A DNA stretch of 57,484 nucleotides from Candidatus Pacearchaeota archaeon (GCA_023139205.1 JAGLOA010000004.1:1-57484); one strand, 5' to 3'; shown: positions 1,671 to 36,552, counted from the first letter of the stretch. The notes: generated from the sequence alone by a model not told the origin. Numbers and translations are program-made.

Positions 1671-1743
1671 GTCTCTGTAGCTCAGGGTTTAGAGCGCGGC
1701 TCTCATGAGGCCGAGGTCGAGGGTTAAAATCCCTTCAGAGACA
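1671..1743 (+). tRNA. tRNA with CAT anticodon (elongator Met or Ile2), atypical T-loop
   Basis: Cloverleaf: GTCTCTG/CAGAGAC acceptor, GCTC/GAGC D-stem, CGGCT-CTCATGA-GGCCG anticodon arm, GAGGG-TTAAAAT-CCCTT T-arm. Confidence 0.8.
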
Positions 1744-1851
1744 TTTCCTCGACCGAGAAGAGGTCGCGAGGTTATTGAACAGCGACAAATTTCTAAGATT
1801 AATAACGTCTTTTCGATGACTGAGTCAGAGTTAAAATCTCCTCAGAGACAT
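1723..1851. mobile_element. short structured insert flanked by duplicated tRNA-CAT 3' end
   Basis: GTTAAAATCCCTTCAGAGACAT (1723-1744) vs GTTAAAATCTCCTCAGAGACAT (1830-1851), 20/22 identical; hairpins in between. Confidence 0.6.
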
Positions 1852-1906
1852 CTCAGATTAAATTTAATCATCATAATTCTTTTAAATTATAAAAAGATTT
1901 AAAAGC

Positions 1907-2305
1907 ATGATTAAATGGTTTAAGAAAAAAAGAATTACTTCATGGGTAATAACCATTCTAATCGCAATAGAGATTTTTTATTTTTCCTCAATCCCTGGAA
2001 ATACTTTGGCAGGAACCAGTGGAGGAAATATCTAGATTTCAAGAACATATCATTTCATTGTATTTTTTCTATTTAGTTTTTTCCTTTTTGCAACAATAAA
2101 TAAAAACAAAAAAATAAAAACAAAACATCTTTTAATTGTCTTAATAATTTCAATAGCATACGCAATCTCAGATGAAATTCATCAACTATTTGTAACTTTT
2201 AGAAATTTCAGTATTAAAGATATTTTAACAGACACTCTTGGAATTTTTTCCTCAATAATAATTTATTCTCATATAAATCAAAAAACACTTAAACAACCAT
2301 CTTAA
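1907..2305 (+). pseudogene. VanZ-like membrane protein with in-frame TAG at codon 43
   Basis: Frame 1907-2305 reads through to YAISDEIHQLFV.FR.FS..D...D.LG (VanZ-like motif); single TAG at 2033-2035. Confidence 0.7.
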
Positions 2306-2636
2306 CTTTATCTCCTTTTTTTCTGGGGATAATATGAAAATGAAAATGTTTCACAACTTGACCTGCTACCTCAAGATTATTATTAATCACATTAAAACCT
2401 TCAGCTTTCTTCTCTTCAATTAACTTTAAAGAAGTTTTTTTAATACAATCAATTAACTCTGAACCCAAACTACTTGGTAAATCCAGAATATTTTCAAAAT
2501 GTTTTTTAGAAATAATTAAACTATGCCCTTCAACAATCGGACTAGCATCAGGAATAGAAAAAAAATTATCATTTTCATAAATTATTTCCCCAGAAGCTAT
2601 TTCCCCCTTAACTATCTTACAAAAAACACAATCCAT
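2289..2636 (-). CDS. HIT (histidine triad) family hydrolase
   Basis: MDCVFCKIV start and AGQVVKHFHFHIIPR triad. Confidence 0.92.
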   Translation of the reverse strand: MDCVFCKIVKGEIASGEIIYENDNFFSIPDASPIVEGHSLIISKKHFENILDLPSSLGSELIDCIKKTSLKLIEEKKAEGFNVINNNLEVAGQVVKHFHFHIIPRKKGDKVKMVV

Positions 2637-2701
2637 TTAAATAAGAATAAAAAATACTTTAAAAAAATTTAGATTATAAAAAAATAAAAAAGAGAATTCT
2701 A

Positions 2702-4683: not shown

Positions 4684-4726
4684 TGATAAATTAGGCACTA
4701 CGAAGTATTTAAATTTTTTGATAGAA

Positions 4727-8484: not shown

Positions 8485-8568
8485 GCGGAGATGCTGGAGT
8501 GGTCAAACAGGACAGACTCAAAATCTGTTGGCTTAGTGCCTACGAAGGTTCGAATCCTTTTCTCCGCA
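8485..8568 (+). tRNA. tRNA-Leu(CAA)
   Basis: GCGGAGA...ACAGA-CTCAAAA-TCTGT, long variable arm, GAAGG-TTCGAAT-CCTTT-TCTCCGC-A. Confidence 0.95.
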
Positions 8569-8658
8569 TATCATTTGATTCGAAGCCTTGGGTTTCATTT
8601 GGATGCTAAGCAGACGAATGACGGAGAGTGAAACGACCCACGAATCCTTTTCCTGCAT
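8551..8658. mobile_element. short structured insert flanked by duplicated tRNA-Leu 3' end
   Basis: CGAATCCTTTTCTCCGCAT (8551-8569) vs CGAATCCTTTTC-CTGCAT (8641-8658); hairpin GAAGCC-TTG-GGTTTC in the insert. Confidence 0.6.
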
Positions 8659-8745: not shown

Positions 8746-11700
8746 CTACCTAACAGGAGTCCAAAATATATAAACAGGATGTCTATTATCTTTTAAAGAA
8801 ATTATTCTATATGTATAAACATGACACCACTCTTTCTCATATTTGTTTTTATTCTTAGACTTAGGAGAAACTAAGTCATCAGTACACTCTTGTCTTTTTT
8901 CTTTATCAATATTCCGAACTTTCTGACCTTTCTCCACATAATCCATCCAATCAAAAACTTTTGCCAATCTTGTTTCTTTATTAATCCATTTAATAAAAAT
9001 AACATTATGAGGAGCACCTTCACTATGAATGATAGACAACAAATCCCCTGGCTGGATCTGGTCTAATTTATCTCTCTCAGGAAAGTCTTCAAAGTCCGCG
9101 AACTTACAAGCACTTCTCAATTCTACACTCTCAGGAACAGCAAAAATTGAATTTCCAATTACTTCTTTAAATTTAACAAAATCAGTATCTATATTTGCAA
9201 AAGTATATTCCCTGCCAACATTATCTGTATAAACACATCTATGATTAAAACCTAATTTTTTATAAAGAGCCATTACTGCTGAAAAACAATTCTCTCCTCT
9301 TTCTGGAATAACAATTGTTCCTTCCAGTTTTTCAGCAAGTTCTAAAACTTGATTTCCTAAATCCTCCCCAGTTTGATCTTCAGAAGAAGAAGAAGAAGAA
9401 GAAGAAGATTCAACTGAAGAACTTTCTCTTTCTTTTTCTTGTTGCTCCAAATCAAACTCCCTTACCCTTAATTCATATTCATCTAAAATATCATCTTGAG
9501 ACATATCCACAAAAGATTTATCTTCTGGGAGTTCTTTTTTAATAATTGGAATCTTTTTATCCCTCTTTTCTTCTAATAACTCTTTCAACCAAACCATATC
9601 TTTTTCCTTAGTAAAAAGCCCTGTTTTTTTCATCTCTTCATATTCCTTCTCACTTAACATTCCTTCATTATAAATTTTATTAACTAATTCAAAATTATCA
9701 CACCAAGCATATATCCCCCCACGAGTCCTCTCCTTATTCCCACATGCCTCCCCTATATTCTTTTCAATCTGAGACTCAACATCCTTTATAGCTAAATTAT
9801 ATGTCTCTCTATCAATCCCTTCCCTCTCTGTTTGATATTCTTCTGAAGAAGCTTCAATCTCAAGAACTCCTTTTGATTTCATAGTATGCCTACGTTTCTC
9901 TTTTCCCTCTTCATCTATTTTATAACAATAAATCTTAGCATAATACTTTCCAGGATTAAATAAATTAAATGTTTTAGTTCCACCAATAAGAGTTGACATT
10001 CCAAAAATAGTCTCATCTCCAATATCCAAGGGTAAATGAACCTTATTTGAATTAATTTCATATTTTACAATATCACAACCATGCTCAACATTTAAGATAA
10101 TCTTATTATTTTCTTGTTTAAATTCCACAGAATCTATTTTATACGTCTTTAGAGCAGTAATTTTTTCATCTTCTTCTTCAACTTTTTCAGGTTCTTCTTC
10201 CTTTGAAGCTTCTTTAGTAATTCCAGAAATCGTTGGATTAAAGATTACATAAACAGGATGATTTCCTGTTTCACTTATGTCTGTTATCTGATATCCAAAA
10301 ACAAGTTCATTTTGTTCATTTCTCTGCCAACCAAACAATTTTGCAATTCCTTTCCGCTCATCAACCCACTTAATAAAAATAACATTATGACCATTCCAAG
10401 GATCTGAAACAATAGATAAAATATCTCCAGGTTGGATTTTATCATATTTTTGTTTTACATTTACATCTCCAGAATTATAACGACATGTATCGGGATAAAC
10501 TAAAAAAATAGTTTGCTCTTTATCATTCTTAGAAATGCCCATTTCTCTAACATATTTTTTATTGTCCCCAGAAGAATCTTTTTCCCATTCAAGCGAATAT
10601 TTTTTCCCAACTTCATCAGAATAAGAACACACTCCTGCTTCAACTCCTGCTTTCTTATAAACATACATAACAGAACTCCAACAACTAGCACCTTCTGTAC
10701 ATAAATACTCCTTTATGATATCTTTTGCTGCAGAACTCTCATCTAATTCTTCAACAACTCTCAAAACTCTTTGTCTAGGGTCAGTTAATTTCAAAATATC
10801 TTCTCCAATTTCAACTCCTCCATCTCCAACAACCCCTGCATTTGTAAAAATAAGAACAGCCCCTTCATCAAAACCCATTTCATTTAAACTATTTATTAAT
10901 TCAAGAGTGCTTTGAACAGGTTTTTTCCCGTCCCACTTCCCACCTTTAACAACTATTGTCTGAACATTCATCCAATTTTTTTTATCAAAAGACCATTCCC
11001 ATTCATCATTCTTATGCCTAAAATAAAGAGGTGTTGCTCCTTTTTTCCCAACAGTAAAAATTCCTTTATGAGATAACTCAACATTTTCTGTAGATAATTC
11101 TGTACCCCAACTACCAAGCATAGTCTTTCCTTCATCATCCTCAAGAGTTCTTTCTATCAACAAATTTAATCCTTGTTCAAAATTAGGATTTTCTTTTTTC
11201 AATAATTTTATAAATTTTTCATTCTTTTCACCAAAATACCAATCTCTCCATTTTTTATCTTCAACATCCATTTCCTGAATATTTCTCCAAGGTTCCTCAT
11301 CAACATACCATTCCCATCCTTGATTAGAATATTTATAATACAAATTCCCATCAGGTTTCCCATCCTTAAACTCAAACACAAGAGAATTATAATCCACAAA
11401 CTTCTCTTCTTCCTCTTCATCAAAAATCTCTTCTTCATCAATTTCTTCCTCATTAATTATTGTCTTTATCTCTGGCTTTCTAACCAAACCAGCATAAGCA
11501 TCTCCCCTCAATAAATGCAGCCGAGCTTTCTCACTATTATAAAAAACCTTCTCTAAAAGTTCATTTATTAAATCGATTTGCTCTAAACCCTTTTTACCCT
11601 TAATCTTCTCAATTTCATCAAAGAAATCCTTCTGAGAAATATAGCCATCTCTATTTCTTAATACTTCTAAATAATCGTCTGTAACACCATCTAAAACTTC

Positions 11701-14700
11701 CTTTTCTATAGTTGTTACTTCTATTACATCCTTAACACTTTTAGTATCAAGCCAGCACTTTATTTTTTTATCTCCGCAATATCCTACTTCCAACCATCTT
11801 GCTCCTTCTCCTCCTGACTTAGCATCTGTTCCTTTTCCAGGATTATCAGTTGCACAAATCCGTATAATTCCTCTATCGTAAATTGCAGGATTAATCACCT
11901 CATCTGCCCCACCCTGAAGATTAGGAGTCAGCAAACTATAAGCGCTTGCACTTCCTGCAATACATCCTGTCTCTGTCTTAATATTTGTTTCTCCTGCCTG
12001 ACTTGCTAAATACTTATCTTCAACATAATTAACTGCAAAATTAGTTGAAACCTGTTTAAACCCACACTCTGGCTCCTGGTTATTAACCATAATGCACATT
12101 TCCTGATAACCAGAAGGAGCAGTAAAATCCTTTGTCTCAGAAGCATATCCTCCTGACGCAATATAACCAGAATCAACCATTCTTGTTGTTGCAGTATCCT
12201 GATAAAATGAACTCTCTGAACTTCCCTTTAAATAAACCCTGTAATAAACTCCAGAATCTTTTCCTGCATAAATATGATAAAACACTTTATATTGTGAAAT
12301 AGGCGGAACAGTTGCAGATGTAAAAGGCATCTCATCAAATCTTCCATGAAACTGAGTAGGTGAATCTGGTTCTGTCAAAGAATCTAATAAATTTCCTCCG
12401 TCAGGAAAAACCCCGGAAACATAAGACTTGCAAATTTCTCCTCCAATATCCTCTGCACTTCTTGCTTTAAATGCATCATAAGAATTTGCAGCATAATAAT
12501 CAGTAAAATAATTTACAGAATTTTCTGCATTATCCCATGCACTTTGAACTCCTAAATACTCTCCTCCACCGCGAGTATTTTGCCCCATCGCCATTTCCAT
12601 CATTTTAGGAATCATTATTTTCGCAAGAGGAAGTGCCTGCTTCCATAAAAACTCACACATATAAACACTATAAATCTCGTCACAAACCCCAATCATCTCC
12701 CCAGTATCTAAACTATGCTGTAAACAATCTCTATAAGAAGTAAAAATAGAAAGAAACCCATCTACTCCTGCTTTTATTCCAGTAAGACAAACTGGAATAT
12801 AAATCCCCTCCTTAATATTTGGCAAACATAATACAATGCTTCCAATTATTCCTGACTGAACAACATCTTTAACAGGATATGCTCCTCCAAAATCACATCT
12901 GCTTGAAGGACAAATAACAGGGTCGCATACATTAAATAATAAATTACAATCTTTAGGAGACATAAAATCCTGGCACTTCATTTCAGGAATATCCACAGCA
13001 GGATTGCAAACCCTAACATCCTGTCCATTAATTCTTACACTCTTCCCTGAACTTGCTGATTTATATTTCCTGGAAGCTTCCTCAACAGCTTCCTGAGCAT
13101 CTCTTATAACTTTTGACGCATCTCCTGGACTTAAACCTGCAAAAGTATTATATGGCTGTCCTGTCCCAGTATTAATCATCTGACAAATATCATCTCCCCC
13201 TTTATTTTCCTCTATTTCATTTTCTCCAACATTGCACACCCAAAAACTCGTAACTCTTCCAGATTCATCATAAGATTTTATTCCTCCAAAAACAGGCAGT
13301 GTCTGACCCACATAAGCATACCATCCATTTTTCAAATCAAAAGGCACAATCGCAGGAAGCCCCTTATACGGCTCTGTCTCATAATATCTCAAACAAGCAT
13401 AAGACTCTCCCAAAGAAGCTTTGTAAGTATTTTCATAAGAAGTTCTGTCATATTTTTTAAAAGATTTAAATTTTCCAACAATATCTTTTCTTTCTTCCCC
13501 AACTTGAATAATTCCATTTTTAATTCCTTCATAATCATAAACTTTATCGACAATATAATCTCTATTTGCCCTTTCTAAAACAGCAACATATTTTTTTCCA
13601 TTATAAGTAATAATCTCTACAGGATAATTTATTTCCTTACCTTCTTCATTTTTATCTTCTAAATTTACTCCCTCAATCTGATTCGAAACAATAGTCCCAC
13701 CAGAATAAGTTCCTACAATAGAACCCTCCTCCCCATAAGAAGTAACACCTAATTCCAAGTTACTTTTTTTCAATTCTTCTGCAAGAGTTTCTCTTTCAAC
13801 ACTAACCTCTGAAGTTTCTTGTATCTCATAAAGTTTTGAATAAATTCTCGCCTTAGCCAGCTCATTTTTCGGATCATCTTCCAAAATAAAAAAATCCTTT
13901 TTAATATCCCTTAAATCATCCAAATAAAGATATTGATTTTTCTTTTTATTTGAAAAAGCATTATGAATTGTAGAACCTTCTGAAAACTTAATTGATTCAT
14001 CAGGATTATTTGGATTAATCATACCCTCCCCATAATTTTCTAAATCTTGAAAAATCTCAGGACGCAGTCCATCCAAAACTTCATCCTCATCATAAACTTT
14101 TTCACCAAACAATCCTTCAGTAACCCCAACTTCACTTTGTATTTTTTTCATCTTTTCATTTACTTTTTGCATTGCCTTATATTCTACCTCAACATCCTTA
14201 TCAATCTCATCTGCATTATCATTCAAACATTCATCTACAGAATCATAACCATCAGCACAACGTGCATACCATCCTCCTTCACCCCTCATAACTTCTTGTC
14301 TTGCAATTGCCTTTCCCCCAGTATTTGCAAAAAAGTTCTTAACAGTCAACATAGCACCAACACCCAGACAAGCTGTTTTAAGCCCCTTCACAACCTTCCC
14401 AAGATCATCAGAAATCTTTGTCCATTTTTCAATTGTCTCATTCAACCCCTCAATTATCTCCAAAGTTTTTTCAGGAGAAAGTTTTATTGACCTCTTTTCA
14501 ATTCCAATCTTAAAACTAAAATTTGCTTCTGTCCCGGCATTATCAATATTTGAAATAACAGAAACTTTTGCAATTTTTTTCAGATTTATTTTATCCACTC
14601 TAATTTTATATTTATTTTTGCCAAGATTCGCCTCATAATCATCAAGCTTAATTGTTTTAGTAGTTCCAACATTCATTAATTCACCAACCCTTTCTCTAAT

Positions 14701-18828: not shown

Positions 18829-19032
18829 TTAATATGAAAGTTTTTTTCCAGCTCTAAGAGAATTAATTCCTCCAACAATTATCAAAATTCCTCCAATAAA
18901 AAGTATCCAATTATCTATTTTAGAAATAAATTCCGGAAGAGTAATGAAATTTAGAGAAGAATTAATAAAATATGCTCCAAAAACCAGATATGATAAAAAG
19001 AAAATGATCTTAAATTTTTTATCCATTATCAA
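18829..19032 (-). CDS. small two-TM membrane protein
   Basis: 67 aa with two hydrophobic segments. Confidence 0.6.
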   Translation of the reverse strand: MIMDKKFKIIFFLSYLVFGAYFINSSLNFITLPEFISKIDNWILFIGGILIIVGGINSLRAGKKLSY

Positions 19033-24622: not shown

Positions 24623-25795
24623 ATGTTTAAATTTTTAAAAGATAAAATAGGAAAATGGGCAAAAAAAGTCTCTGAAAAAACAGAAATAAAAGAAAAACCA
24701 AAAGAAATAGAAACTCCTGTAAAAATAAATCTAAAAGAACAGACATCTAAACAAGATTTAGAAAAAGAAATTAATGAAAAAAAAGTTGAAACTAAAAAAG
24801 AAGTTAAAATTCCTGTAAAATTTAATGCAGGAACACATGCATATGAACCAGATTTAGAAAAGTTAGAAGAAATCAAAAAAGAAGAAGAAACCCCCGAACC
24901 AGGAAAAAAAGGATTTTTCAAAAAAATAACTTCAAAAATAAACAAGGTAAAAATTTCTGAAAAAGAATTTGAAGTTTATTCTGAAGAACTTGAAATGTTG
25001 CTTTTAGAAAATAACGTAGCTTTAGAAGTAGCAGAAAAAATGATTAAAGAATTAAAAGAAAAAATAATCGGAAAAGAACTTTTGAAAAAAGAAGTTGAAG
25101 GAGAAATAAAAGATTGTTTCAAAGAAATAATTGAAGAAATTTTAATAGATCCTTTTGATTTAGTTGAAAAAATTAAAGAGAAAATCTCTAACCAAAAAAA
25201 AGACCCTTATGTGATTTTATTTTGTGGGATAAATGGGACAGGAAAAACAACAACATTGGCTAAAATTGCAGATTCTTTAAAAAGTAAAAAAATTTCTTGT
25301 GTAATTGCTGCAGCAGACACTTTTAGAGCAGCCTCAATAGAACAAATAAAAGAACATGGAGAAAAAATAGGAGTAAAAGTTGTGTCTCAAGAATATGGTT
25401 CTGACCCTGCAGCAGTAGGATTTGATGCAATAAAATATGCAAAAAAGAATTTCATAAATTGCGTTTTAATTGATACAGCCGGAAGAATGCACACTTCAAA
25501 AAACTTGTTAAAAGAAATTGAAAAAATTTCAAGAGTCTGCAAACCAGATACAAAAATATTCGTTGGGGAAAGTATAACTGGAAATGATGTTATAGAACAG
25601 GCAAAAAGTTTTGACTGGGAAATTGGAATTGACGGAGTGGTCTTAACAAAAGCAGATATTGATGAAAAAGGCGGCACAGCTTTGTCAGTAGGTTATATAA
25701 CAAAAAAACCAATTCTTTATTTAGGTACAGGTCAGGCCTATGACAAGATAGAACCCTTTGACAAGCAAAAATTCATAGAAAAATTAGGATTGTGA
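24623..25795 (+). CDS. ftsY: SRP receptor FtsY
   Basis: GINGTGKTTT, AADTFRAA, DTAGRM, TKAD.D.KGG, GTGQ.Y; K/E-rich N-terminal region. Confidence 0.95.
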   Translation: MFKFLKDKIGKWAKKVSEKTEIKEKPKEIETPVKINLKEQTSKQDLEKEINEKKVETKKEVKIPVKFNAGTHAYEPDLEKLEEIKKEEETPEPGKKGFFKKITSKINKVKISEKEFEVYSEELEMLLLENNVALEVAEKMIKELKEKIIGKELLKKEVEGEIKDCFKEIIEEILIDPFDLVEKIKEKISNQKKDPYVILFCGINGTGKTTTLAKIADSLKSKKISCVIAAADTFRAASIEQIKEHGEKIGVKVVSQEYGSDPAAVGFDAIKYAKKNFINCVLIDTAGRMHTSKNLLKEIEKISRVCKPDTKIFVGESITGNDVIEQAKSFDWEIGIDGVVLTKADIDEKGGTALSVGYITKKPILYLGTGQAYDKIEPFDKQKFIEKLGL

Positions 25796-25933
25796 ATTTT
25801 TGTGCAGTCTATATGATTTCTCCAGAGGAAATTGGAAATCACCGTTCAGTGTTTTGGGGGAAGGTTCTAAAGGAAACCAGCCGGTTTCTTTTATTTTGAC
25901 AAACAAAAGTTCATAGAAAAACTTGGATTATGA
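25757..25933. mobile_element. 99-nt hairpin module flanked by synonymously recoded copies of the ftsY 3' end
   Basis: 25757-25795 and 25895-25933 both encode FDKQKFIEKLGL*; 34/39 nt identical, all 5 differences synonymous. Confidence 0.8.
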
Positions 25934-25983
25934 AAGACCATCTAAATCTTTAAAAATAAGGGATTTCTTTCAATCAATAGAAA

Positions 25984-26988
25984 ATGAACGATGATGAACC
26001 TCCTGATTCAAGAACGAATTCTCTAGAAAGAAAATTAACAACAATAATAGTCCAAAAAAACACAGAACCTCTACTCTCTCCAAAGATGCTTAAAGGGAAA
26101 TATAGTTCTATTAGAAATCCTGGAGCATTTACTTATAAAGATAAAATTGGATTGCTTTGCACAGTAAGATATTCTTCAGATAATAAATGCAGATTACATC
26201 TAGCATGGAGTGAAAATGGGAAAGATTTTAGTCTTGAAGAAAATCCATTCATAGATTTAGACCCGGATGCACAAGAAGGAGTAGAAGATTCAAGAGTTTC
26301 AAAAATCGGAAAAGAATATTTTATTACATTCACTGCCTATAAAGGGTATGAAAACAAAGCAAACACAACTAGGGTGGGGCTTATAAAAACAAAAAATTTC
26401 AAATCTTTTTTTGAAAGAAAAATTATACTTGATGAGCATAGAAATAATAAAAATTCATTAATTTTTGAGCATGAAGGGACTCCATGGATAATTGACAGAA
26501 AATTTAGAGGGGATGGAAATGATGAATTTTCTCCAGGGGCAAGAATAGCAAGAATAAAAAACTTAGAAAAAACAGAAATTGAAGAATTCAAACCTTTTTT
26601 AATGCCAAGAAAAGAAAAATGGGATAATGCAAGAACTGGTGTAAACACCCCTCCCATAAAAATGAAACATAAAATTTACGGGGATATTTTATTTATGTTA
26701 TATCATGGGGCAAGTAAACAAGGAAACAGATATCAAATGGGATATGTTATATTAGACGGTAAAAACCCAAACAAAATTTTAGAAAGATCAATAGAACCTC
26801 TTCTCTCCACAGAATTAGATTGGGAAATAGGAAGAGGAAAATATCCTGCAGAAGTAGGAAATGTAGTGTTTGGTTGCGGGGCAATTCCTATAGGAAAAAA
26901 CAAAATAAGAGCATATTATTCAGGAGGAGACAGATATCCTGGATTTGCAGACCTAACAATCAAAAACACAAAAATTAAAGAACAATAA
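25984..26988 (+). CDS. GH130-like glycosidase/phosphorylase (five-bladed beta-propeller)
   Basis: RNPGA, GVEDSRV, NNKN, WDNARTGVNTPP, YHG, NVVFGCGA, YYSGGD. Confidence 0.8.
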   Translation: MNDDEPPDSRTNSLERKLTTIIVQKNTEPLLSPKMLKGKYSSIRNPGAFTYKDKIGLLCTVRYSSDNKCRLHLAWSENGKDFSLEENPFIDLDPDAQEGVEDSRVSKIGKEYFITFTAYKGYENKANTTRVGLIKTKNFKSFFERKIILDEHRNNKNSLIFEHEGTPWIIDRKFRGDGNDEFSPGARIARIKNLEKTEIEEFKPFLMPRKEKWDNARTGVNTPPIKMKHKIYGDILFMLYHGASKQGNRYQMGYVILDGKNPNKILERSIEPLLSTELDWEIGRGKYPAEVGNVVFGCGAIPIGKNKIRAYYSGGDRYPGFADLTIKNTKIKEQ

Positions 26989-27721: not shown

Positions 27722-29089
27722 ATGCTAGAAAAATTAGGAGAAGTTTTAAGAAAAGCCACAGACAAAATAGCAAATGCTATATTCTTAGACAAAAACCTTG
27801 TTGATTCTATAATCAGAGATTTACAAAGAGCTTTAATTGAAGCAGATGTAAATGTTATTTTAGTCAAGCAAATTAGTGATAAAATAAAAAAAGCTGCTGT
27901 AGATGAAAGAATCAAAGGGATAGATAAAAAAGAACACATAATAAAATTATTACATGATGAACTTAAAAAAATTCTTGGAGAATATAAACAGCTAAAATTA
28001 CAGCCAAAACAAAATAAAATTATGCTCTTAGGTTTATATGGAGCAGGAAAAACAACAACAATCGCAAAACTAGGAAATTATTTTGCAAAACGGGGAAAGA
28101 AAGTAGCATTAATTGGATTAGATGTCCACAGACCAGCTGCACCAGAACAACTAAAACAACTTGCAGAAAAAAATAAACTTACTTGCTTTATAGATTTAAA
28201 AGAAAAAGACCCTCTGAAAATTTGGAAAAAATATGAAAAAGAACTAAAAGATTATGATTTAATTTTAATAGATACTGCAGGAAGACACAATCTTGACAAA
28301 GAACTAGTTAAAGAAATAAAAGAATTAGGAAAGAAAATAAAACCAACAGAAACGATTTTAATAATGCCTGCAGATATTGGGCAAGCAGCAAAAACACAAG
28401 CACAAGAATTCAAAGACGCTGTAAATATCTCTGGAGTAATTATTACAAGAATGGACTCAACTGCAAAAGGAGGGGGAGCTTTAACAGCCTGTGCAGAAAC
28501 ACAAGCTCCGGTTTATTTCATAGCAACAGGTGAAAAAATAAATGATCTGGAAGAATTTGACCCTGAACGTTTCCTTTCAAGACTTTTGGGCATGGGGGAC
28601 TTACAATCTTTAATTGAAAAAATAAAATCAGTTACAGATGAAACCCAGCAACAAAAAATTCAAAAAAAATTAGAAGAAGGAAAATTAAGTTTAGATGATG
28701 TTATCGAGCAAGTAAAATCAATGAATCAATTAGGAGGACTTGATAAAATAAAATCCATGATTCCTGGTATGGGAAATGCAAAAATTCCTGAAAATGTTTT
28801 AGGAACTCAGGAAGAAAAAATAAAAAAATGGGAGCACATTGTGAAATCAATGACTCAGGAAGAAAAAGAAAATCCAGAAATATTAGAAAAACAAACTTCA
28901 AGGATGGCAAGGATTGCAAAAGGTTCAGGAGTTCACACAAGCGACGTGAGATCTCTGCTAAAACAATACAAAATGCTTAATGAAATGATAAAAGGTGGAG
29001 CAGATATGGACATGTCACAAGGAATGAGCCAAAAACAAATGATGAAATTTGCAAAGAAATTTATGAAAGGAAAAAAGATGAGATTTTAA
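27722..29089 (+). CDS. ffh: signal recognition particle protein SRP54/Ffh
   Basis: LQRALIEADVN, GLYGAGKTTT, DTAGRH, TRMDSTAKGGGALT, Met-rich M domain. Confidence 0.96.
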   Translation: MLEKLGEVLRKATDKIANAIFLDKNLVDSIIRDLQRALIEADVNVILVKQISDKIKKAAVDERIKGIDKKEHIIKLLHDELKKILGEYKQLKLQPKQNKIMLLGLYGAGKTTTIAKLGNYFAKRGKKVALIGLDVHRPAAPEQLKQLAEKNKLTCFIDLKEKDPLKIWKKYEKELKDYDLILIDTAGRHNLDKELVKEIKELGKKIKPTETILIMPADIGQAAKTQAQEFKDAVNISGVIITRMDSTAKGGGALTACAETQAPVYFIATGEKINDLEEFDPERFLSRLLGMGDLQSLIEKIKSVTDETQQQKIQKKLEEGKLSLDDVIEQVKSMNQLGGLDKIKSMIPGMGNAKIPENVLGTQEEKIKKWEHIVKSMTQEEKENPEILEKQTSRMARIAKGSGVHTSDVRSLLKQYKMLNEMIKGGADMDMSQGMSQKQMMKFAKKFMKGKKMRF

Positions 29090-29128
29090 AAAGATTATTT
29101 TTAAAATTATAAAAAGTTTAATTTTTAT

Positions 29129-29695
29129 TTATGCTTCATATGTTATTGTTATCCAACCCCGATTATAAGGATCATCATATTCTTCAGAATCAAAATTAGA
29201 ATTCTCAAAAAATCCTCCTGTGAATCTACTTATTAAAATACGATTACTAGTAGTATCTCCAATAGATCCACCTTTCGTTAGCTCAACACTATCACCCAAT
29301 AAAATCGGATAAATCCTAGTATTAGCATCATCTCTTATTATAACGTCTATACTTCTAATTTTAAAATAATTAACCCCAAGCCCATGATCAACCCCCGAAC
29401 CAAATGAAGAAACCATATTCCAATCACCAATTTCAATAACTTTTGTTTTCAAAACAATATTATCTGTTTTTATCCCATCATTGAAAACAGCAACTCCATC
29501 AACTCCCCCACTTAAATCAAGTTCTTCAGCACTATGTCCTACAACAGAAGCAGGTCCTCCAGAGTTATAAGCATAAACTCCAACACCAACTACAGCTAAA
29601 ACTCCAATTACAATCAAAGTATAAAACAATCTGTTAGAAAAATTTATCTGAAGTTTTCCTATTTTAATTTTCTTCACCATCTTTATTAAAAACAT
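29129..29695 (-). CDS. membrane-anchored hypothetical protein
   Basis: N-terminal TM (LFYTLIVIGVLAVVGVGVYA) followed by a beta-rich domain. Confidence 0.6.
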   Translation of the reverse strand: MFLIKMVKKIKIGKLQINFSNRLFYTLIVIGVLAVVGVGVYAYNSGGPASVVGHSAEELDLSGGVDGVAVFNDGIKTDNIVLKTKVIEIGDWNMVSSFGSGVDHGLGVNYFKIRSIDVIIRDDANTRIYPILLGDSVELTKGGSIGDTTSNRILISRFTGGFFENSNFDSEEYDDPYNRGWITITYEA

Positions 29696-29712
29696 TAAAG
29701 AATTGTTCTTTT

Positions 29713-30066
29713 TTAAATATTCCTCTCATCTAAAAAATCTTTAAATTCCTTCTTCAACCATTGTTCACATTTCTCTAAATATTTAGGAGAACTCTTTCCT
29801 GAATCATTCAAAATAAATAAATCTTCATTACAACCATAAGGAGATGGAGAACTTTCATAAAGCAAATAAACATCACTTTCTACATGAAATTTTATATGTT
29901 CACTCTTTTCTTTTAAAGAAGGATATGAAACAACCCCTAATTCCCCAGAATTAATTAATTTATTTAACCTTTTTTCTAAAGCCGAATTTGGATTGTCTTT
30001 TGAACCTATATGTCCCTGATAAGCTATAACTCTCTTCTTGATCATATCTCCATTAAATAAACTCAT
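29713..30066 (-). CDS. hypothetical protein
   Basis: 117-aa ORF, no recognised motif. Confidence 0.55.
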   Translation of the reverse strand: MSLFNGDMIKKRVIAYQGHIGSKDNPNSALEKRLNKLINSGELGVVSYPSLKEKSEHIKFHVESDVYLLYESSPSPYGCNEDLFILNDSGKSSPKYLEKCEQWLKKEFKDFLDERNI

Positions 30067-30119
30067 GAATATAAGAAAATAACTAAGTTTTTAAGCAAAT
30101 CCCTATTCAAGAATATATA

Positions 30120-30554
30120 TTAAATTTTTAGCCTTTTTTTAAGAGCTTCTAAGAAAAAACTTGGAATAGATATTGGTTCTTCTTTTGAAACATCAACAAA
30201 AAGATCTTGTGTTTGTGCAGTAAAAACTAATTCCTGAGAATCATTAAAAAACTGAAAATCCATTTGAAAAAAAGGATTCTTAATTTTAGTTATCTTTAAA
30301 TCAACCTTAAAATTATCTCCATACTTCAAAGATCTTCTGTAAGTAAGATCAAAAAATCTTCTCCTTGTATAAGCAATGTTTTTCTCTTTCCTAAAAAATG
30401 CATCACTCCAACCAAACTGCTTTAAAAATTCTGCCCGAACATACTCACAATATTGAAAATAATCTGCATTATTAAGATGTTCATTACGATCGTTTTTATG
30501 AGATACTTCCAAGTTAAAACTACCTTCATAAAGCAATTCCCCTAATTCTTTCAT
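30120..30554 (-). CDS. acyl-CoA thioesterase, 4HBT/YbgC hot-dog family
   Basis: DRNEHLNNADYFQYCEYVR resembles the DxxGHVNNxxYxxYxExxR motif. Confidence 0.8.
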   Translation of the reverse strand: MKELGELLYEGSFNLEVSHKNDRNEHLNNADYFQYCEYVRAEFLKQFGWSDAFFRKEKNIAYTRRRFFDLTYRRSLKYGDNFKVDLKITKIKNPFFQMDFQFFNDSQELVFTAQTQDLFVDVSKEEPISIPSFFLEALKKRLKI

Positions 30555-30642
30555 AATAAATTTGTAAAATAAAAGTTTTTAAGTTTTATTATATTCAAAA
30601 TAAAATCAATAATCTTATAAATAAAAAAGAACAAGAAAAACT

Positions 30643-30849
30643 ATGGAAATAAAAATAATTTTAGAAGAGCAAAAAGAAGGAGGATACACAACTTATGTGC
30701 CTTCTTTGCCAGGATGCACCTCCCAGGGAGAAACAATTGAAGGAGCACTAAAAAACATTAAAGAAGCAATTGAATTATATCTAGAAGCAGATGAAAATGA
30801 ACTTATTATTTACAAAGACAATGTAAAAACAGAAACAATCACAATATGA
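30643..30849 (+). CDS. hicB: HicB family antitoxin
   Basis: EGGYTTYVPSLPGCTSQGETIEGALKNIKEAIELYLE. Confidence 0.9.
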   Translation: MEIKIILEEQKEGGYTTYVPSLPGCTSQGETIEGALKNIKEAIELYLEADENELIIYKDNVKTETITI

Positions 30850-31064
30850 AAATTCCTCAGATTTCTGGAAAAGAATTAATAAAAAAACTGCGTAAATTTG
30901 GTTTTGTTGTGACAAGGCAAAAAGGTTCTCATATAAGATTAGAAAAAAACACTGAAAACAAAACCATCAAAATCACAATCCCCAACCACCAAATTCTCAA
31001 AAAAGGAACTTTAAACCAAATCATTAAATCAATAGGGTTAACTGCTGAGGAAATTTTTTCTTGA
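30846..31064 (+). CDS. hicA: HicA family toxin (mRNA interferase)
   Basis: ISGKELIKKLRKFGF...RQKGSHIRL...IPNHQILKKGTL; ATGA overlap with hicB. Confidence 0.9.
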   Translation: MKIPQISGKELIKKLRKFGFVVTRQKGSHIRLEKNTENKTIKITIPNHQILKKGTLNQIIKSIGLTAEEIFS

Positions 31065-31124
31065 ATAAAATGAGCCAAAAGCAAATGATGAAATTTATAA
31101 AAAGTAAAAAAATTAAGTTTTAAG

Positions 31125-31580
31125 ATGAACCGAAAAGAAAAGTTAGATTGGTATAAAGAAGAATTTGATAAGATTTGTAAAATTATTCACAACAAAAAAG
31201 AATTATCTTATCTTGATTTCTTAAGAATTAGAAATTTTAAATTACAAAATTCTACAATTGAAGAGGAAAAGAATATTAAAGAGATTACATCTAAAGCATT
31301 TGAATTAGCAAAAAAAGATAAAATTGAAGGATCAATAAAAGAATTGCTCAAATTAAATGGTGTAGCCATACCCATTGCATCTACAATTCTTGCTATGAAA
31401 TTTCCAGAAAAATATGCTATAATTGACAGAAGAGTTATAAAACAATTAAACAAACCCGAATGGATGAAAGATTATTTAAAAAATCCAAAAACTTACAAGG
31501 AATATATTTTAGCAATGAGAAAAACCAAACCTATCAATTTATCTTTAAGAGATTATGAAAGGAGTTTATTTGAAAAATGA
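31125..31580 (+). CDS. hypothetical protein with HhH-like motif
   Basis: LLKLNGVAIPIASTIL...YAIIDRRV resembles a helix-hairpin-helix followed by D, as in HhH-GPD glycosylases. Confidence 0.55.
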   Translation: MNRKEKLDWYKEEFDKICKIIHNKKELSYLDFLRIRNFKLQNSTIEEEKNIKEITSKAFELAKKDKIEGSIKELLKLNGVAIPIASTILAMKFPEKYAIIDRRVIKQLNKPEWMKDYLKNPKTYKEYILAMRKTKPINLSLRDYERSLFEK

Positions 31581-32272
31581 CATCACAAAAAAATTGTTTG
31601 CATGTGGCATCCATCGGAGGCAATTAAAAGATGCCACCGTTCAGTGCTTCGAGGAGAGAGCGCGAGAGAAATCAACGGGTTCTCTCGCAGGGTGCAGAAG
31701 CAAAAATAATTCTTTCAGGAAATTCAATCATAAAAGATAGAATAAAAAAATCATACAGAATCCCAGAACTTGATGAAAAAATTAGAAAATTAAGAACTCG
31801 TTCAGAAACAAAACTTCTTACAAAAGCATCTGAAATAATTAATTGTCCTAAACCTCAAGAACTAAAAGAATTTGATAAAATAAAAATGCCTTTTATCGAC
31901 GGCAAAAAACTTTCAGAACATTTAGATAACTTTCCCTTAAAACAACAAAAACAAATTTGCAATCAACTTGGAGAAGCAATTGCAAAACTTCACGACAATA
32001 ATATAATTCATGGAGATTTAACAACATCAAATATGATTCTAAAAAATGAAGAAGTTTATTTTATTGATTTCGGATTAGGATTTATAAGTCACAAATATGA
32101 AGACAAAGCAGTTGATTTGCATTTACTAAAACAAGCCTTAGAAGCAAAACATTTTCAAAATTACAAAGAACTTTTAAAAGAAGTTTTCAAAGCCTATAAA
32201 AAATCCAAAGACTCTAAAATTGTTTTTGAAAGATTAAAGGCAGTTGAAAAAAGAGGCAGATATAAACACTAA
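31577..32272 (+). CDS. bud32: KEOPS kinase Bud32, 5' end interrupted by a structured insert
   Basis: QGAEA, K.RIKKSYR..ELD..IR..RT..E, IIHGDLTTSNMI, IDFGLG, EDKAVDL; ATG 31577 overlaps upstream stop (ATGA) but in-frame TAA at 31625; alternative ATG at 31631. Confidence 0.9.
31592..31688. mobile_element. hairpin module homologous to the ftsY insert
   Basis: TGGCATC/GATGCCA stem, then CCGTTCAGTG, then GCGAGAGAA/TTCTCTCGC hairpin; same layout as 25796-25894. Confidence 0.75.
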
Positions 32273-33069: not shown

Positions 33070-33182
33070 AATAGCTCCTCCAGGATCCTCGAAGAGGTCT
33101 TGTCCCTCCTTGGGATTCTCGTGCTGGGAGCATTAGCGAGGCAATATCGAACCTTGGTTCGAATCAATAGCCCCACCAGGAT
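33070..33182. mobile_element. short multi-hairpin insert flanked by duplicated tRNA-Gln 3' end
   Basis: Minus strand ATCCTGGTGGGGCTATT (tRNA end) vs ATCCTGGAGGAGCTATT 96 nt downstream; four short hairpins between them. Confidence 0.65.
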
Positions 33183-33292
33183 TCGAACCTGGGTCCCAGC
33201 CTTACTTCAAGCTCCAAAGGAATTGGAGTAATGAAAGATGCAAGCATCTTACTTTCAAAGGGCTGAATACTTGACCACTGTACTATGGGGCT
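33168..33292 (-). tRNA. tRNA-Gln(TTG) with 52-nt intron at 37/38 (33203-33254)
   Basis: AGCCCCA/TGGGGCT acceptor, CAGCC-CTTTGA[intron]A-GGCTG, CCAGG-TTCGAAT-CCTGG; CTTT pairs with intron GAAG as a BHB-like central helix. Confidence 0.88.
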
Positions 33293-34117: not shown

Positions 34118-34244
34118 TTTAATTTCTCCTGAAATTTTCTCAAGCTAAGAATCTCTATCACCTTTCTCATTAAATCAATAAGCAATTTTTATTTAAATAT
34201 CTTTCATTAGTAAGATTTAAAAGACAAGATTACAACTTAATAAA

Positions 34245-34595
34245 ATGCCAAAAAAAGTTGAAGAAAAAACAGAAGAAAAAAAGAAAGCAAAACCAAAAAA
34301 ACTTTCCATAGCAGAATTTGAAAAAAAAGTAATAGAATTAGTTGGGAAAGGGCTTACAAGTGAAAAAATAGGTGAAGAATTAAAAAAACAGGGAATTCAT
34401 TCAAAAGACTATAACAAAAAAATCTCTAAAATTCTAGGAGAAAAATACATTAACCCAGATTTAAAAAATGTTGAAAACAAATTAGAAAGAATAAAGAAAC
34501 ATTACGAGAACAATAAGCAAGATAAAAGAGCAATGAGAGAAAAAGATAGAATATTTGCACAACTTAGAAAACTAAAAAAATATTTTAAGATTTGA
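34245..34595 (+). CDS. rps15: 30S ribosomal protein S15 (S13e family), short form
   Basis: VIELVGKGLTSEKIG..LK.QG...PDL.N...I.KH...NKQDKRAMR; precedes DHH gene. Confidence 0.8.
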   Translation: MPKKVEEKTEEKKKAKPKKLSIAEFEKKVIELVGKGLTSEKIGEELKKQGIHSKDYNKKISKILGEKYINPDLKNVENKLERIKKHYENNKQDKRAMREKDRIFAQLRKLKKYFKI

Positions 34596-34624
34596 ACTTT
34601 CTATCTAAAAAACTATTTTTAAAA

Positions 34625-35962
34625 ATGGAAAAAGAGGTAAATTCGCTAGAAAGAGAAATAAAATCTGTAGCCAAAAAATTTCTTGAAAAATCCAAGGACA
34701 AAAAAATTCAGGTTATAAGCCACTTTGATACAGACGGCATTACTTCTGCAGCAATAATGATTCAAACCCTCAAAAAATTAGATAAAACATTTACTGTAAA
34801 AATAGTGAAAAGCCTCGAAGAAGAATTAATAAAAAAACTACCAAAAGACAAATTAACTTTATTTTTAGATTTAGCTTCAGGAAGTTTAAACCATATTTCT
34901 GATGCAAAATTAGAAGATGTTTTTATAATAGATCATCACGAAATTATCCAGGAAATTCCCCCAGAAATAAATATTATAAATCCTGAATTAAAAGATAAAC
35001 AAAAAATAAGCGGTTCAAGTTTAACCTATTTATTTTGCAAAGAACTAAATCCAAAAAATCAAGAATCTGCAAAATTAGCAATATTGGGGATGATTGGAGA
35101 TTGTATGGAAAAAGAAATAGATAAACTAAATCATGATATCTTAAATGACGGAGAAGTAAAAAGAAAAAGAGGACTTTTAATTTATCCGTCGACAAGACCC
35201 CTAAACAGAACTTTAGAATATTGTTCTAAACCATATATCCCAGGAGTTACCGGAGACACAAAAGGAGCTTTAGAATTATTAAGAGAAATTGGACTAAACC
35301 CTAAAGAAGGCAAATACAAAAGTCTCATAGAACTGGATGAAAAAGAAATGTCAAAGTTAGTTACTGCAATAATATTAAGAAATCCAAAAGTAAAAAATAA
35401 AGAAATAATAGGAGATATTTTTTTAATAAAATTGTTCAATAAACTCGAAGATGCAAGAGAATTAAGTGCGATGATTAATGCTTGTTCCAGACTAGGAGAA
35501 AGTGGATTGGCAATCCAGCTTTGCATGGAAATTTCAAAAGCCAAGAAAAAAGCAAAATCAATTTATGTCAAATACAAACAATTAATTGTATCAGGATTAA
35601 AATTTGCTTCAGAAACAGAAAAAATACAGGGAGAAGGATTTACAATAATAAACGCTAAAGACAAAATAAAAGACACAGTAATAGGAACAATCGCAAGTAT
35701 TTTATCTTATTCTTCAATTTACAAAGAAGGGACAATTATTATCGCCATGGCATATTACAGCAATAAAATAAAAATCTCTGCAAGAAATGTTGGAAGAACC
35801 GGAAGAAATGTCAGAGAAATTTTAAACAAAGTTGTGAATGAAATAGGAGGAGAAGTTGGAGGTCATGAATTTGCAGCAGGAGGCATGATTTCTCAGGAAA
35901 AAGAACAGGAATTTATTAATCTTCTAAAAAAGAATCTTGAAATAGAATTAATTAAAGTTTAA
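34625..35962 (+). CDS. DHH family phosphoesterase (RecJ-like)
   Basis: SHFDTDGITS, LDLASG, IIDHH, GMIGD, SARN, GGHEFAAG; start placed at MEKEV. Confidence 0.9.
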   Translation: MEKEVNSLEREIKSVAKKFLEKSKDKKIQVISHFDTDGITSAAIMIQTLKKLDKTFTVKIVKSLEEELIKKLPKDKLTLFLDLASGSLNHISDAKLEDVFIIDHHEIIQEIPPEINIINPELKDKQKISGSSLTYLFCKELNPKNQESAKLAILGMIGDCMEKEIDKLNHDILNDGEVKRKRGLLIYPSTRPLNRTLEYCSKPYIPGVTGDTKGALELLREIGLNPKEGKYKSLIELDEKEMSKLVTAIILRNPKVKNKEIIGDIFLIKLFNKLEDARELSAMINACSRLGESGLAIQLCMEISKAKKKAKSIYVKYKQLIVSGLKFASETEKIQGEGFTIINAKDKIKDTVIGTIASILSYSSIYKEGTIIIAMAYYSNKIKISARNVGRTGRNVREILNKVVNEIGGEVGGHEFAAGGMISQEKEQEFINLLKKNLEIELIKV

Positions 35963-36552
35963 CTGTATTCATTCTACAAGGGTAAAACTTATAAAAGTTT
36001 CTTATCTCTCAGAGGGATATGGGAATAGTAAAATTATTGACTGGAAAAACATTAAAAAGACATTTTACAGAAGATCCAGGAAATATTAAAGAATTTTTTG
36101 AAATGGTAAAAGAAAAGGGAGAAAAAGATGTAAATGCGAATATAATTGAATATCCAAACCAAACATGGGATATGTTTGATTATAAGATGTGTCCAAGCCA
36201 TCAGAATTGCATAAGGACAAAATATCAATCTTCAACAATCGAATTTATCAAACATGAAAACTACAGCAATCTTGTAGAACCTGTTGAAAATTATAATGGA
36301 ACTAAATATAATATAAAAAGAGGCGATGTTATTAAACATTTTACAATTGAGGAAAAGGATTATTACTCAAAAAAATTTCCAGAACTAAAAATAACACTAC
36401 AAAAAGAGAAGGAAATCCGAGACTCAATTAAAGAACTTACTGAATATTATGAAACTCCCCCAATAAAATTTAAAGGGGTAGAGGATTTCTTTAATTAATT
36501 ATTTATTGATCTTCTAAAAAAGAATCTAGAAATAGAATTAATCAAGGTTTAA
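35911..36552. mobile_element. single-gene insert flanked by recoded copies of the DHH gene 3' end
   Basis: 52-nt copies at 35911-35962 and 36501-36552, 48/52 identical; FINLLKKNLEIELIKV* vs FIDLLKKNLEIELIKV*. Confidence 0.8.
36019..36498 (+). CDS. hypothetical protein (cargo of the DHH-end insert)
   Basis: 159-aa ORF lying exactly between the two DHH-end copies. Confidence 0.65.
   Translation: MGIVKLLTGKTLKRHFTEDPGNIKEFFEMVKEKGEKDVNANIIEYPNQTWDMFDYKMCPSHQNCIRTKYQSSTIEFIKHENYSNLVEPVENYNGTKYNIKRGDVIKHFTIEEKDYYSKKFPELKITLQKEKEIRDSIKELTEYYETPPIKFKGVEDFFN

Follow-up and report, generated by a model that had tools for sequence, protein, structure and literature searches.

Duplicated gene ends bracket mini-elements and gene cassettes in a Pacearchaeota/Woesearchaeota-like archaeal lineage

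What places a second copy of a gene's own end beyond an insert, and does so at seven conserved genes of a single archaeal scaffold? The question is raised by a stretch of 57,484 nucleotides (GCA_023139205.1 JAGLOA010000004.1:1-57484; hereafter the window), a metagenome scaffold (ZHAN22-2_SAMN18200495 scaffold_316) of ~30% G+C from Candidatus Pacearchaeota archaeon. The initial annotation of this DNA reported a duplicated 3' end behind three tRNA genes (Met, Leu, and Gln) and four protein genes (apgM, ftsY, ffh, and a DHH gene) and took these duplications for insertion scars rather than the outcome of random tandem duplication. All seven are present at or near the positions given there and lie far above shuffled controls, and the reading as insertion scars is supported. 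The pattern had been described as window-wide, which is correct as far as it goes; in fact it is common across the lineage and not peculiar to the window, and it includes dispersed families of structured mini-inserts, one of which doubles as tRNA introns. We refer to the duplicated segment as T, to the gene's own end as T1, to the orphan copy beyond the insert as T2, and to an inverted copy of the start of T as T'. Inserts are of two kinds, non-autonomous mini-elements (~47 to 190 nt) and cassettes of one to a few genes. Relatives were represented by 80 loci around ffh, one genome per related species, and loci are numbered with the prefix L. The sites at protein genes in the window are as follows.

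22445-23686, minus strand: apgM, anchor gene
22433-22476, minus strand: T1 at apgM, consisting of the last 29 nt of apgM, the stop codon, and the start codon region of the next small gene
22034-22432, minus strand: apgM cassette, a frameshifted paralogue of the small gene, at most 84% identical to the intact copy
21990-22033, minus strand: T2 at apgM, a perfect second 44-nt copy that leads the intact 135-aa small gene (21593-22000)
24623-25795, plus strand: ftsY, anchor gene
25757-25795, plus strand: T1 at ftsY, the last 12 codons and the stop
25796-25894, plus strand: ftsY insert, a 99-nt E element (covariance-model match of 77 bits, with covariation)
25895-25933, plus strand: T2 at ftsY, 34/39 identical to T1, the five nucleotide differences all synonymous
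27722-29089, plus strand: ffh, anchor gene, with T1 at 29023-29089, the C-terminal coding end
29090-31068: ffh cargo of 2 kb, with unknown open reading frames (ORFs) of 188 and 117 aa, a 4HBT thioesterase, and HicB and HicA (Pfam)
31069-31123, plus strand: T2 at ffh, a diverged orphan end, 27/28 identical and then a tail ending in KF and a stop
34592-35962, plus strand: DHH/GAN-like gene, with T1 at 35911-35962, the last 16 codons and the stop
35963-36500, plus strand: DHH cassette, carrying ORF159 (36019-36498)
36501-36552, plus strand: T2 at DHH, 48/52 identical, with three synonymous codon differences and one non-synonymous

The sites at tRNA genes carry mini-inserts.

1670-1744, plus strand: intact tRNA-Met(CAT) (ARAGORN, Rfam), with T1 the last 25 nt, 1720-1744
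1745-1826, plus strand: 82-nt mini-insert at tRNA-Met, whose 60-nt core (1766-1825) belongs to family F
1827-1851, plus strand: T2 of the tRNA-Met 3' end, 22/25 identical to T1 (shuffle p<0.001)
8485-8568, plus strand: tRNA-Leu(CAA) (ARAGORN), with T1 at ~8551-8568
8569-8640, plus strand: 72-nt mini-insert at tRNA-Leu, starting with GATTCGAAGCCTT, complementary to the T arm (p=0.005)
8641-8657, plus strand: T2 of the tRNA-Leu 3' end, a 12/12 core and then one indel
33168-33292, minus strand: tRNA-Gln(TTG) with a canonical intron (Rfam), with T1 at 33168-33184
33089-33167, minus strand: 79-nt mini-insert at tRNA-Gln, orthologous to L011:3588-3639 (85%), its start common to L021
33072-33088, minus strand: T2 of the tRNA-Gln 3' end, 15/17 identical, read from the sequence

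The sites differ in how much of the second copy is preserved. The apgM site is a tandem pair of diverged paralogues of the small gene, each with a perfect 44-nt T, and the paralogue adjoining apgM is the frameshifted one, which corrects the initial annotation at this site. At ftsY, the insert opens with T' at 25796-25809 and continues as a two-hairpin core at 25809-25894 that ends in a T run. The ffh copies are 27/28 identical between 29023-29050 and 31069-31096, and the degenerate tail beyond still reads MSQKQMMKFIKSKKIKF followed by a stop. The tRNA-Leu copies share a 12/12 core (8551-8562 versus 8641-8652) within ~17 nt that contain one indel (p<0.001). The second tRNA-Met end looks like a fossil, since its T stem can no longer pair. 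The tRNA-Gln gene, which is absent from a default ARAGORN run because it has an intron, has an extra partial T-arm copy nearby at 33147-33158 (11/12, p=0.012).

Chance does not account for these repeats. The initial annotation had proposed shuffled controls, and in order-3 Markov shuffles of the window, in which direct repeats within 3 kb were scored, there were no repeats scoring ≥25 and 0.02 per shuffle scoring ≥20. The window itself holds eight direct repeats scoring ≥25 within 3 kb, four of which lie on the 3' ends of apgM, ftsY, ffh, and DHH; the others are paralogous genes or protein repeats. A significant second 3' end lies 70 to 110 nt downstream of three of the six window tRNAs (Met and Leu, p<0.001; Gln, p~0.01), while the same shuffle test found no second 3'-end copy downstream of tRNA-Cys, tRNA-Arg, and tRNA-Thr. 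Nor did an assembly chimera, which had been named as a possible refutation, explain the sites. The structure at DHH recurs in another European Nucleotide Archive (ENA) sample and, among Logan assemblies, in those of three separate runs, those at ftsY and ffh were found again in a second ENA sample, and the apgM tandem is spanned by a small ENA contig (L168) from yet another sample; Logan contigs at apgM end inside the 44-nt repeat and neither confirm nor contradict that site. Since these structures recur in independent samples and assemblies, and at DHH with a second assembler, we consider an assembly artefact excluded for practical purposes.

We asked how far the pattern extends among the relatives. 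A copy of the last 13 to 22 nt occurs 47 to 440 nt downstream in 17/116 of their tRNAs, compared with 2/116 for an upstream control. In these tRNAs, T extends from the T loop to the tRNA 3' end, and its right edge falls 0 to 2 nt beyond that end in all 16 evaluable cases. The ftsY T is duplicated in at least 12 other species (L003, L004, L005, L009, L018, L027, L041, L057, L076, L077, L122, and L148). Its T2 lies ~95 to 120 nt downstream in L004, L005, L041, L057, L076, and L077, 37 nt downstream in L027, and 1.1 kb downstream in L009; L003 and L018 have the ftsY insert with a more diverged T copy, and L122 and L148, both from metagenomes, likewise carry the duplication. Other targets include the 5' end of gins51 (L007, L026, L028, L041, L076, and L077), the 5' end (L034) and 3' end (L005 and L026) of bud32, and the 3' end of ffh (L058). 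Altogether the unrelated targets number at least 14, 5' as well as 3' gene ends being used. T is 11 to 52 nt long overall, and its left edge varies even for one target (tRNA-Gln, 13 to 19 nt; tRNA-Thr, 13 to 22 nt; gins51, 11 to 42 nt).

The order GINS-apgM-ftsY-ffh-bud32-ParA-DHH-eIF2alpha is conserved among these loci, while the content of every gap between these genes is variable. Empty sites, for which the initial annotation had suggested searching, were found in relatives at DHH|eIF2alpha and ftsY|ffh and as uninterrupted bud32. DHH lies within 30 to 60 nt of eIF2alpha in L003, L017, L018, L021, L024, and L028, where the window instead has ORF159, T2, and ORF122; ftsY adjoins ffh in L010 and L019; and bud32 is without interruption in L003 and ten other species.

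If the second copies were dead duplicates, they should show no regard for the reading frame. Instead, 15 T1/T2 pairs differ at 76 synonymous and 14 non-synonymous codons, where a neutral simulation predicts ~77 non-synonymous changes and none of 5,000 runs gave as few as 14. The earlier suggestion that both copies look like selected gene ends thus extends beyond the window sites on which it was based. The synonymous bias is present also at the 5' end of gins51, where the orphan copy is untranslatable as GINS. Lineage-specific residues appear in both copies by way of different codons (Arg CGT/AGA in L057, Arg AGA/AGG in L027, and Thr ACA/ACT in L018), and the sister species L076 and L077 each have a T1 and a T2 that are similar to one another but different from those of the other species, a pattern of concerted evolution. 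Because a dead duplicate would behave otherwise, synonymous and concerted change of T1 and T2 suggests continuing recombination between the copies. The simplest reading is that this recombination is ongoing, either as gene conversion or as precise cycles of excision and re-integration. The ftsY, DHH, and apgM sites of the window look live, while the orphans at tRNA-Met, tRNA-Leu, tRNA-Gln, and ffh look like fossils on account of a broken T stem, indels, or a degenerate tail. Two other sources of such differences were considered and rejected. A diversity-generating retroelement does not fit, since the differences are synonymous, fall at third positions, involve every type of base, and are not adenine-specific, and there is no reverse transcriptase in the window. 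Bypass or read-through from T1 to T2 in a constant frame does not fit the T1-T2 distances of 138, 161, 134, and 142 nt, which keep no constant frame.

The gene cassettes hold one to five genes. Those in the window carry ORF159, the frameshifted small-gene paralogue, and the two unknown ORFs with the thioesterase and HicAB; those in relatives carry a P-loop kinase-like protein, membrane or secreted proteins, and unknowns. Cargo tends to be matched at the same address elsewhere: the sole ORF159 homologue (58% identical) likewise follows DHH, in L088, a thioesterase homologue lies directly after ffh in L006, and a small-gene homologue lies after apgM in L021. In L034, an identical 51-nt T is followed by a diverged bud32 fragment. 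A perfect T beside diverged cargo, as in L034 and at apgM (44/44 for T versus ≤84% for the paralogues), points to recombination with DNA of a related lineage, anchored in the gene end. The initial annotation had offered homology-anchored recombination with relatives' DNA as its alternative explanation, and since cargo homologues sit beside the same anchor genes, it is this alternative that fits the gene cassettes better. The remark that cargo may be tiny is likewise borne out, with mini-inserts from 47 nt upward.

No enzyme that might move these inserts was found where we looked. Pfam searches of the main non-overlapping window ORFs of up to ~615 aa (four giant ORFs unscanned) and of the cargo of five relatives returned no tyrosine or serine recombinase, transposase, or reverse transcriptase, in agreement with the earlier failure to see an integrase in the window, and no Cas1 domain was present in the window or the tested cargo. 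PADLOC found no defence genes in the cargo except a weak HicA match. As a separate observation, L088, which has the ORF159 homologue, also contains a free-standing LAGLIDADG_3 homing-endonuclease ORF beside a ParA-like gene (L088:603-1520).

The ftsY insert led us to the largest family of mini-elements, E. Homologous ftsY inserts occur in L003, L004, L005, L018, L041, L057, L076, and L077, and a covariance model built from 14 copies gave 41 matches in relatives; a 24-mer of the core located 75 further metagenome loci, for a total of 113 copies in 0.7 Mb. No integrase was found beside any of the 113 copies. E is ~83 nt long and consists of hairpin 1 (GCGATTTC-N14-GAAATCGC, with GGAGG in the loop), a conserved linker (CCGTTCAGTGTTTTGAGGAAGTTCAAAA), hairpin 2 (GAAACC-NNN-GGGTTTC), and a terminal TTTTA. 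Compensatory changes occur at 13/14 pairs and 96.7% of cells pair, far above shuffled and slid controls. E has no match in Rfam 15: only tRNAs reached the gathering score in the window, and a permissive scan of 25700-25990 gave nothing better than an E value of 2. A coding role was rejected, since the consensus frame is open but 1-nt indels between copies break it while the structure is conserved. As to a promoter role, inspection by eye revealed, in the last 30 nt of E, no box of the TTTTTAAA type that stands upstream of tRNA genes in the window. An autonomous parent was not seen either, as no copy is split into halves by an ORF, E is absent from the viral contigs searched, and the tested cargo yielded no recombinase.

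The two ends of E behave differently. The consensus begins TATGCGATTTC... and finishes ...GGGTTTCTTTTA, without inverted repeats; the TTTTA end is the exact junction in every context, while the opposite end is variable. In every T-E-T insertion of E type at a protein gene, T' lies just 5' of hairpin 1 and inverts the first 8 to 14 nt of T, with a 12/12 match at ftsY in L004. T' moreover covaries with its target at gins51, where GCAGCTTC occurs with GAAGCTGC and GCTGCTTC with GAAGCAGC. At tRNA sites T' is ambiguous because the T-arm TTCGAA is its own palindrome, and so it is secure for protein-gene targets only. A duplication of T, 11 to 48 nt long, accompanies ~12 of the 65 evaluable E copies, and L007 has T-E-T-E-T arrays. 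E lies in either orientation relative to host genes; some copies are flush with a tRNA 3' end (L094, L139, L144, and L159) or 5' end (L103), and ~17 adjoin a start codon.

Several single E-bearing loci may be recorded alongside these. An E copy at L146:5998-6080 lies on the strand opposite a 16S rRNA gene and is flush with the 3' end of that gene. Two to four E stand head to tail at L066:1-262, L100:1940-2054, and L147:3456-3609, some at contig ends, in arrays that may be real or an assembly collapse. At L067:4399-4748, a tRNA-Tyr gene is bracketed by two orphans, one of its first 15 nt upstream and one of its last 20 nt downstream; the upstream orphan stands directly behind an E copy and is followed by a 74-nt insert with a promoter-like TTTAAAT box.

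Judging by sequence similarity, the mini-inserts of tRNA-Met and tRNA-Gln belong to dispersed families other than E. Family F comprises the core of the window tRNA-Met insert, which is 83% identical over 60 nt to L004:1685-1744, and relatives in L004, L007, L023, and L099; the member in L023 sits between two copies of a tRNA-Gln end. Similarly, a single element in L043 stands behind both tRNA-Thr and tRNA-Val, flanked in each case by the local tRNA end.

E is also found inside genes, and the window provides an eighth insertion of this kind.

31600-31688, plus strand: second window copy of E, in the 5' end of bud32 (RIO-type kinase; covariance-model match of 52 bits)

Here an 87-nt insert without duplication separates codon 8 from the Q of QGAEA. 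The bud32 ORF (31577-32272) has its called start at an ATG inside E (31631); the ancestral start and first eight codons are found at 31577-31600, and without the 87-nt insert they align colinearly with relatives. The same position is filled by E in the window, L007, and L076, with lengths of 87, 81, and 84 nt that are all multiples of three. Two of these inserts are open in frame, and the window copy contains a stop, with an in-frame ATG one codon further on. The in-frame lengths point to tolerated translation rather than splicing, and at the insert boundaries of the window bud32 inspection revealed no 3-4-3 motif of a bulge-helix-bulge (BHB) intron, relaxed BHB motifs being left open. A BHB intron was rejected for both ftsY and bud32, given the perfect 12-bp helix without bulges in L004 and these lengths.

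In tRNA genes of other metagenomes, by comparison, the reverse complement of E constitutes essentially the whole of a canonical-position intron (85 to 134 nt). The nine genes concerned (L090, L099, L107, L114, L123, L132, L133, L134, and L150) encode tRNA-Lys, Thr, Ser, Phe, and Leu; E has a single orientation in all of them, with the TTTTA end against nucleotide 37, and the segment that pairs with the exon occupies the position that T' takes in the other insertions. The features of a BHB intron (position 37/38 and exon-intron pairing) were thus found for E in relatives only and not at the seven window sites. All nine genes were found only when long introns were allowed. Since default ARAGORN misses tRNAs with introns of 85 to 134 nt, tRNA counts in metagenome-assembled genomes (MAGs) of this kind are probably too low.

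What process might join these observations? The reading we favour, though with no more than even confidence, is reversible recombination of Campbell type between a T-bearing insert and the chromosomal gene end. Incoming DNA would bear its own copy of T and recombine within the short terminal segment of the gene (13 to 52 nt), yielding the gene with T1, the insert, T2, and the old neighbour, with the gene left intact; recombination between T1 and T2 would then remove the insert precisely. Mini-elements (E at ftsY, F at tRNA-Met, and others at tRNA-Leu and tRNA-Gln) would enter in this way, and cassettes would be taken from relatives that have the cargo in question beside the same anchor gene. 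Coupling of T1 and T2 would keep the orphan copy under indirect purifying selection, as its variants would be exposed through the gene. No element-encoded enzyme would be needed, the catalyst being either host homologous recombination (RadA is encoded at 50519-51598) or a trans-acting recombinase from elsewhere. Such a process would account for how the sites are built, why their genes remain intact, the arrays and empty sites, the position of the edge of T at the gene end, the origins of cargo, and the coupling of T1 and T2. The right edge of T at the tRNA end, in particular, would be expected if sequence identity persists only in the part needed to restore the gene, or within the homology shared by donor and recipient.

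Several observations weigh against this reading. It leaves unexplained T', the exact TTTTA junction, and how a mini-element acquires the T of a new target; an exact E-TTTTA|T junction with T' beside hairpin 1 is not predicted by plain homologous recombination. The tRNA T segments (13 to 25 nt) are short for homologous recombination of the RadA type, and their start in the T loop is that of a classic tyrosine-integrase site. The enzyme search reached the window and cargo only, and a trans-acting recombinase may be encoded elsewhere in the genome. About 50 of the 65 evaluable E copies have no duplication of T, which suggests that E also moves, or persists, by another route. Finally, near-identical contigs all have the same structure, and among them there was neither a strain-level polymorphism of empty and occupied sites nor an excised circle.

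Some of these points would be answered if a tyrosine or serine recombinase acted in trans on attP-like T sites, with mini-inserts as satellites or elements resembling cis-mobilizable elements (CIMEs) and cassettes as decayed integrative elements, an explanation that we regard as unlikely but as deserving serious consideration. Known attB sites in tRNA genes likewise extend from the T loop to the 3' end, the right edge of T is fixed in 16/16 cases, and both arrays at single sites, through repeated integration, and the exact junction at the TTTTA end of E would follow. There are also precedents in the partial tRNAs around integrase-free cargo of tycheposons and in tRNA fragments of Caldiarchaeum (PMC3293823). 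However, such an enzyme would be required to act on no fewer than 14 unrelated targets, 5' as well as 3' ends, and to tolerate a left edge of T that varies for the same target, none was found in the window, in cargo, or beside the E copies, and E does not occur in the viral contigs.

Slightly more doubtful, in our view, is the possibility that the mini-elements are programmed by their targets, with E and its sister families using T and T' as a guide or homology to enter and leave gene ends without an enzyme of their own. If this were so, E in an anticodon loop would be a spliceable intron by virtue of the same T/T' bracket, and the family would still be supplying archaea with new tRNA introns and their proteins with in-frame insertions.

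T might alternatively be a long target-site duplication left by staggered-cut or target-primed transposition of a DNA or RNA copy, with nicks 13 to 50 nt apart and with T' arising by fold-back of a new strand that copies the primer-proximal target. The variable length of T is in keeping with such a process, as is the single exact end beside a T run, which resembles a terminator and could be an RNA 3' end. So are the constant relation of T' to the first 8 to 14 nt of T, at the opposite end of the element, and the occurrence of one family at different targets with the local T (Thr and Val in L043; F at tRNA-Met in the window and at tRNA-Gln in L023). We nevertheless think it improbable. Orphans that were dead on arrival should decay neutrally, yet these evolve like coding sequence; cassettes without any mini-element share the T-insert-T pattern; in 16/16 cases one of the nicks would have to coincide exactly with the end of the tRNA; no reverse transcriptase, Cas1, or transposase was seen in the window or tested cargo; and most E copies have no duplication.

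That the inserts are introns, acting at the RNA level, is less probable again. It draws on the nine tRNA introns in one orientation, on the shared position of T' and the exon-pairing segment, and on the N terminus of bud32, which is colinear with relatives once E is subtracted. Outside tRNAs, however, E lies in either orientation relative to host genes, the ftsY bracket helix is free of bulges (12/12 perfect in L004), and the T1-T2 distances cited above keep no frame; splicing at ftsY could in any case not put T2 in frame because the stop codon precedes E. The readable lengths of the bud32 copies, moreover, speak for translation.

Local tandem duplication followed by divergence, or a chimera of two strains, is hardly credible, for although apgM is formally a tandem duplication of T and the small gene and Logan contigs end inside its repeat, most inserts are unrelated to flanking DNA, T at apgM is 100% identical beside paralogues of at most 84%, the same structures occur in several samples (at DHH with two assemblers) and the pattern in dozens of unrelated MAGs and metagenomes, and six of the seven window sites contradict it.

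Campbell-type recombination at gene ends, our favoured reading, has its nearest counterparts among gene-end integrative elements, such as the tycheposons of Prochlorococcus and archaeal elements of the pNOB8 and SSV type. There, too, the insert lies between repeats of a terminal gene segment, the gene is left undamaged, and successive integrations can be traced by partial tRNA copies. The e14 element at icd in E. coli replaces the end of its target gene, and the copies differ synonymously, as here. Unlike those elements, the mini-inserts described here measure ~47 to 190 nt, lack an integrase in the window and cargo, use at least 14 targets including 5' ends, have a variable left repeat edge, and fall into structured families with T'. 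Integrase-free cargo units between partial tRNAs have been described for tycheposons (preprint). In the model of tRNA disruption in Caldiarchaeum subterraneum (Sugahara et al. 2012, PMC3293823), an integrating element leaves an orphan tRNA fragment, and this is linked to intron gain. The 5' and 3' orphans of tRNA-Tyr in L067 and the occurrence of E as both tRNA intron and insert are reminiscent of that model, which, however, concerns a single 1.8-kb recombinase-encoding element at one tRNA, whereas E is 83 nt long, non-coding, and multi-copy, and is found at protein genes too.

Comparison with short dispersed repeats is also instructive. Rickettsia palindromic elements, repetitive extragenic palindromes and bacterial interspersed mosaic elements (REP/BIME), and Correia elements are short, structured, and high in copy number, have no recognisable transposase, and are tolerated in ORFs or RNA genes. 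E resembles Rickettsia palindromic elements in its in-frame insertions (81, 84, and 87 nt in bud32) and in the lack of a recognisable transposase. It differs from palindromic repeats in having no terminal inverted repeats, one exact end, copies that make up whole tRNA introns, and a subset with gene-end duplications of 11 to 48 nt, and kinship in sequence with those repeats is not expected. From miniature inverted-repeat transposable elements, E is set apart by the lack of terminal inverted repeats and by a duplication that is absent or 11 to 48 nt long, with no fixed length. Casposons make a fixed 14- to 15-bp duplication at the 3' end of a tRNA or EF-2 gene, whereas T here is 11 to 52 nt long and no Cas1 domain was seen.

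Homology-facilitated illegitimate recombination, or Campbell single crossover of foreign DNA, is described in Acinetobacter and pneumococcus. It shares with the present sites a junction in conserved homologous DNA, cargo from beside the same gene in a relative, and independence of a dedicated enzyme; the exact E|T junction and T' are not explained by it. To our knowledge, no recurrent generation of terminal duplications throughout a lineage has been ascribed to it. The initial annotation had proposed an integron-like system, and there is a resemblance in the addition of small, mostly single-gene cassettes, including a toxin-antitoxin pair, at fixed sites. We do not retain that proposal: the seven loci have no intI, attI, attC-like site shared between cassettes, or single array or platform, the repeat is the local gene end, and 5' gene ends are used as well.

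We found no description of E or of the T-insert-T pattern in DPANN archaea in the literature. What sets these inserts apart from known systems is the miniature size, the lack of an enzyme gene, the many unrelated targets at both gene ends, T', and the fact that E also serves as a tRNA intron. The genomes of DPANN archaea are tiny, with hardly any intergenic space, few recognised mobile elements, and variable gene content between core genes. The pattern shows that DNA can be gained and lost at the very ends of essential genes without harm, and it joins integrative-element scars, dispersed mini-repeats, and tRNA introns, which are usually separate topics. If the E family really seeds introns, the origin of archaeal tRNA introns, a long-standing question, would become directly testable. 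Orphan gene ends and E copies may meanwhile serve as markers of insertion hot spots and of annotation errors, such as the bud32 start and missed intron-containing tRNAs.

As judged from its genes, the host of the window is a Pacearchaeota/Woesearchaeota-like DPANN archaeon. Archaeal proteins identified on it by Pfam include eIF2alpha, S8e, S3Ae, TFB, GINS, RadA, and the DHH-CID/GAN-like nuclease, and its closest ffh homologues, at 83 to 84% amino acid identity, are in MAGs labelled Pacearchaeota, Woesearchaeota, or Nanoarchaeota. Other features of the window were noted in passing. A perfect 21-nt direct repeat (18955-18975 and 19838-19858) links a small minus-strand membrane ORF to a position inside the S3Ae gene and is borderline, its score equalling the maximum of 100 shuffles. 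A VanZ-like membrane ORF at 1909-2290 is broken by an in-frame TAG near 2034 and could be a pseudogene or a case of recoding. Giant ORFs of 2657, 1739, 1402, and 1532 aa with internal repeats, at 8746-18563 and 40506-57410, take up much of the window beyond the sites described here.

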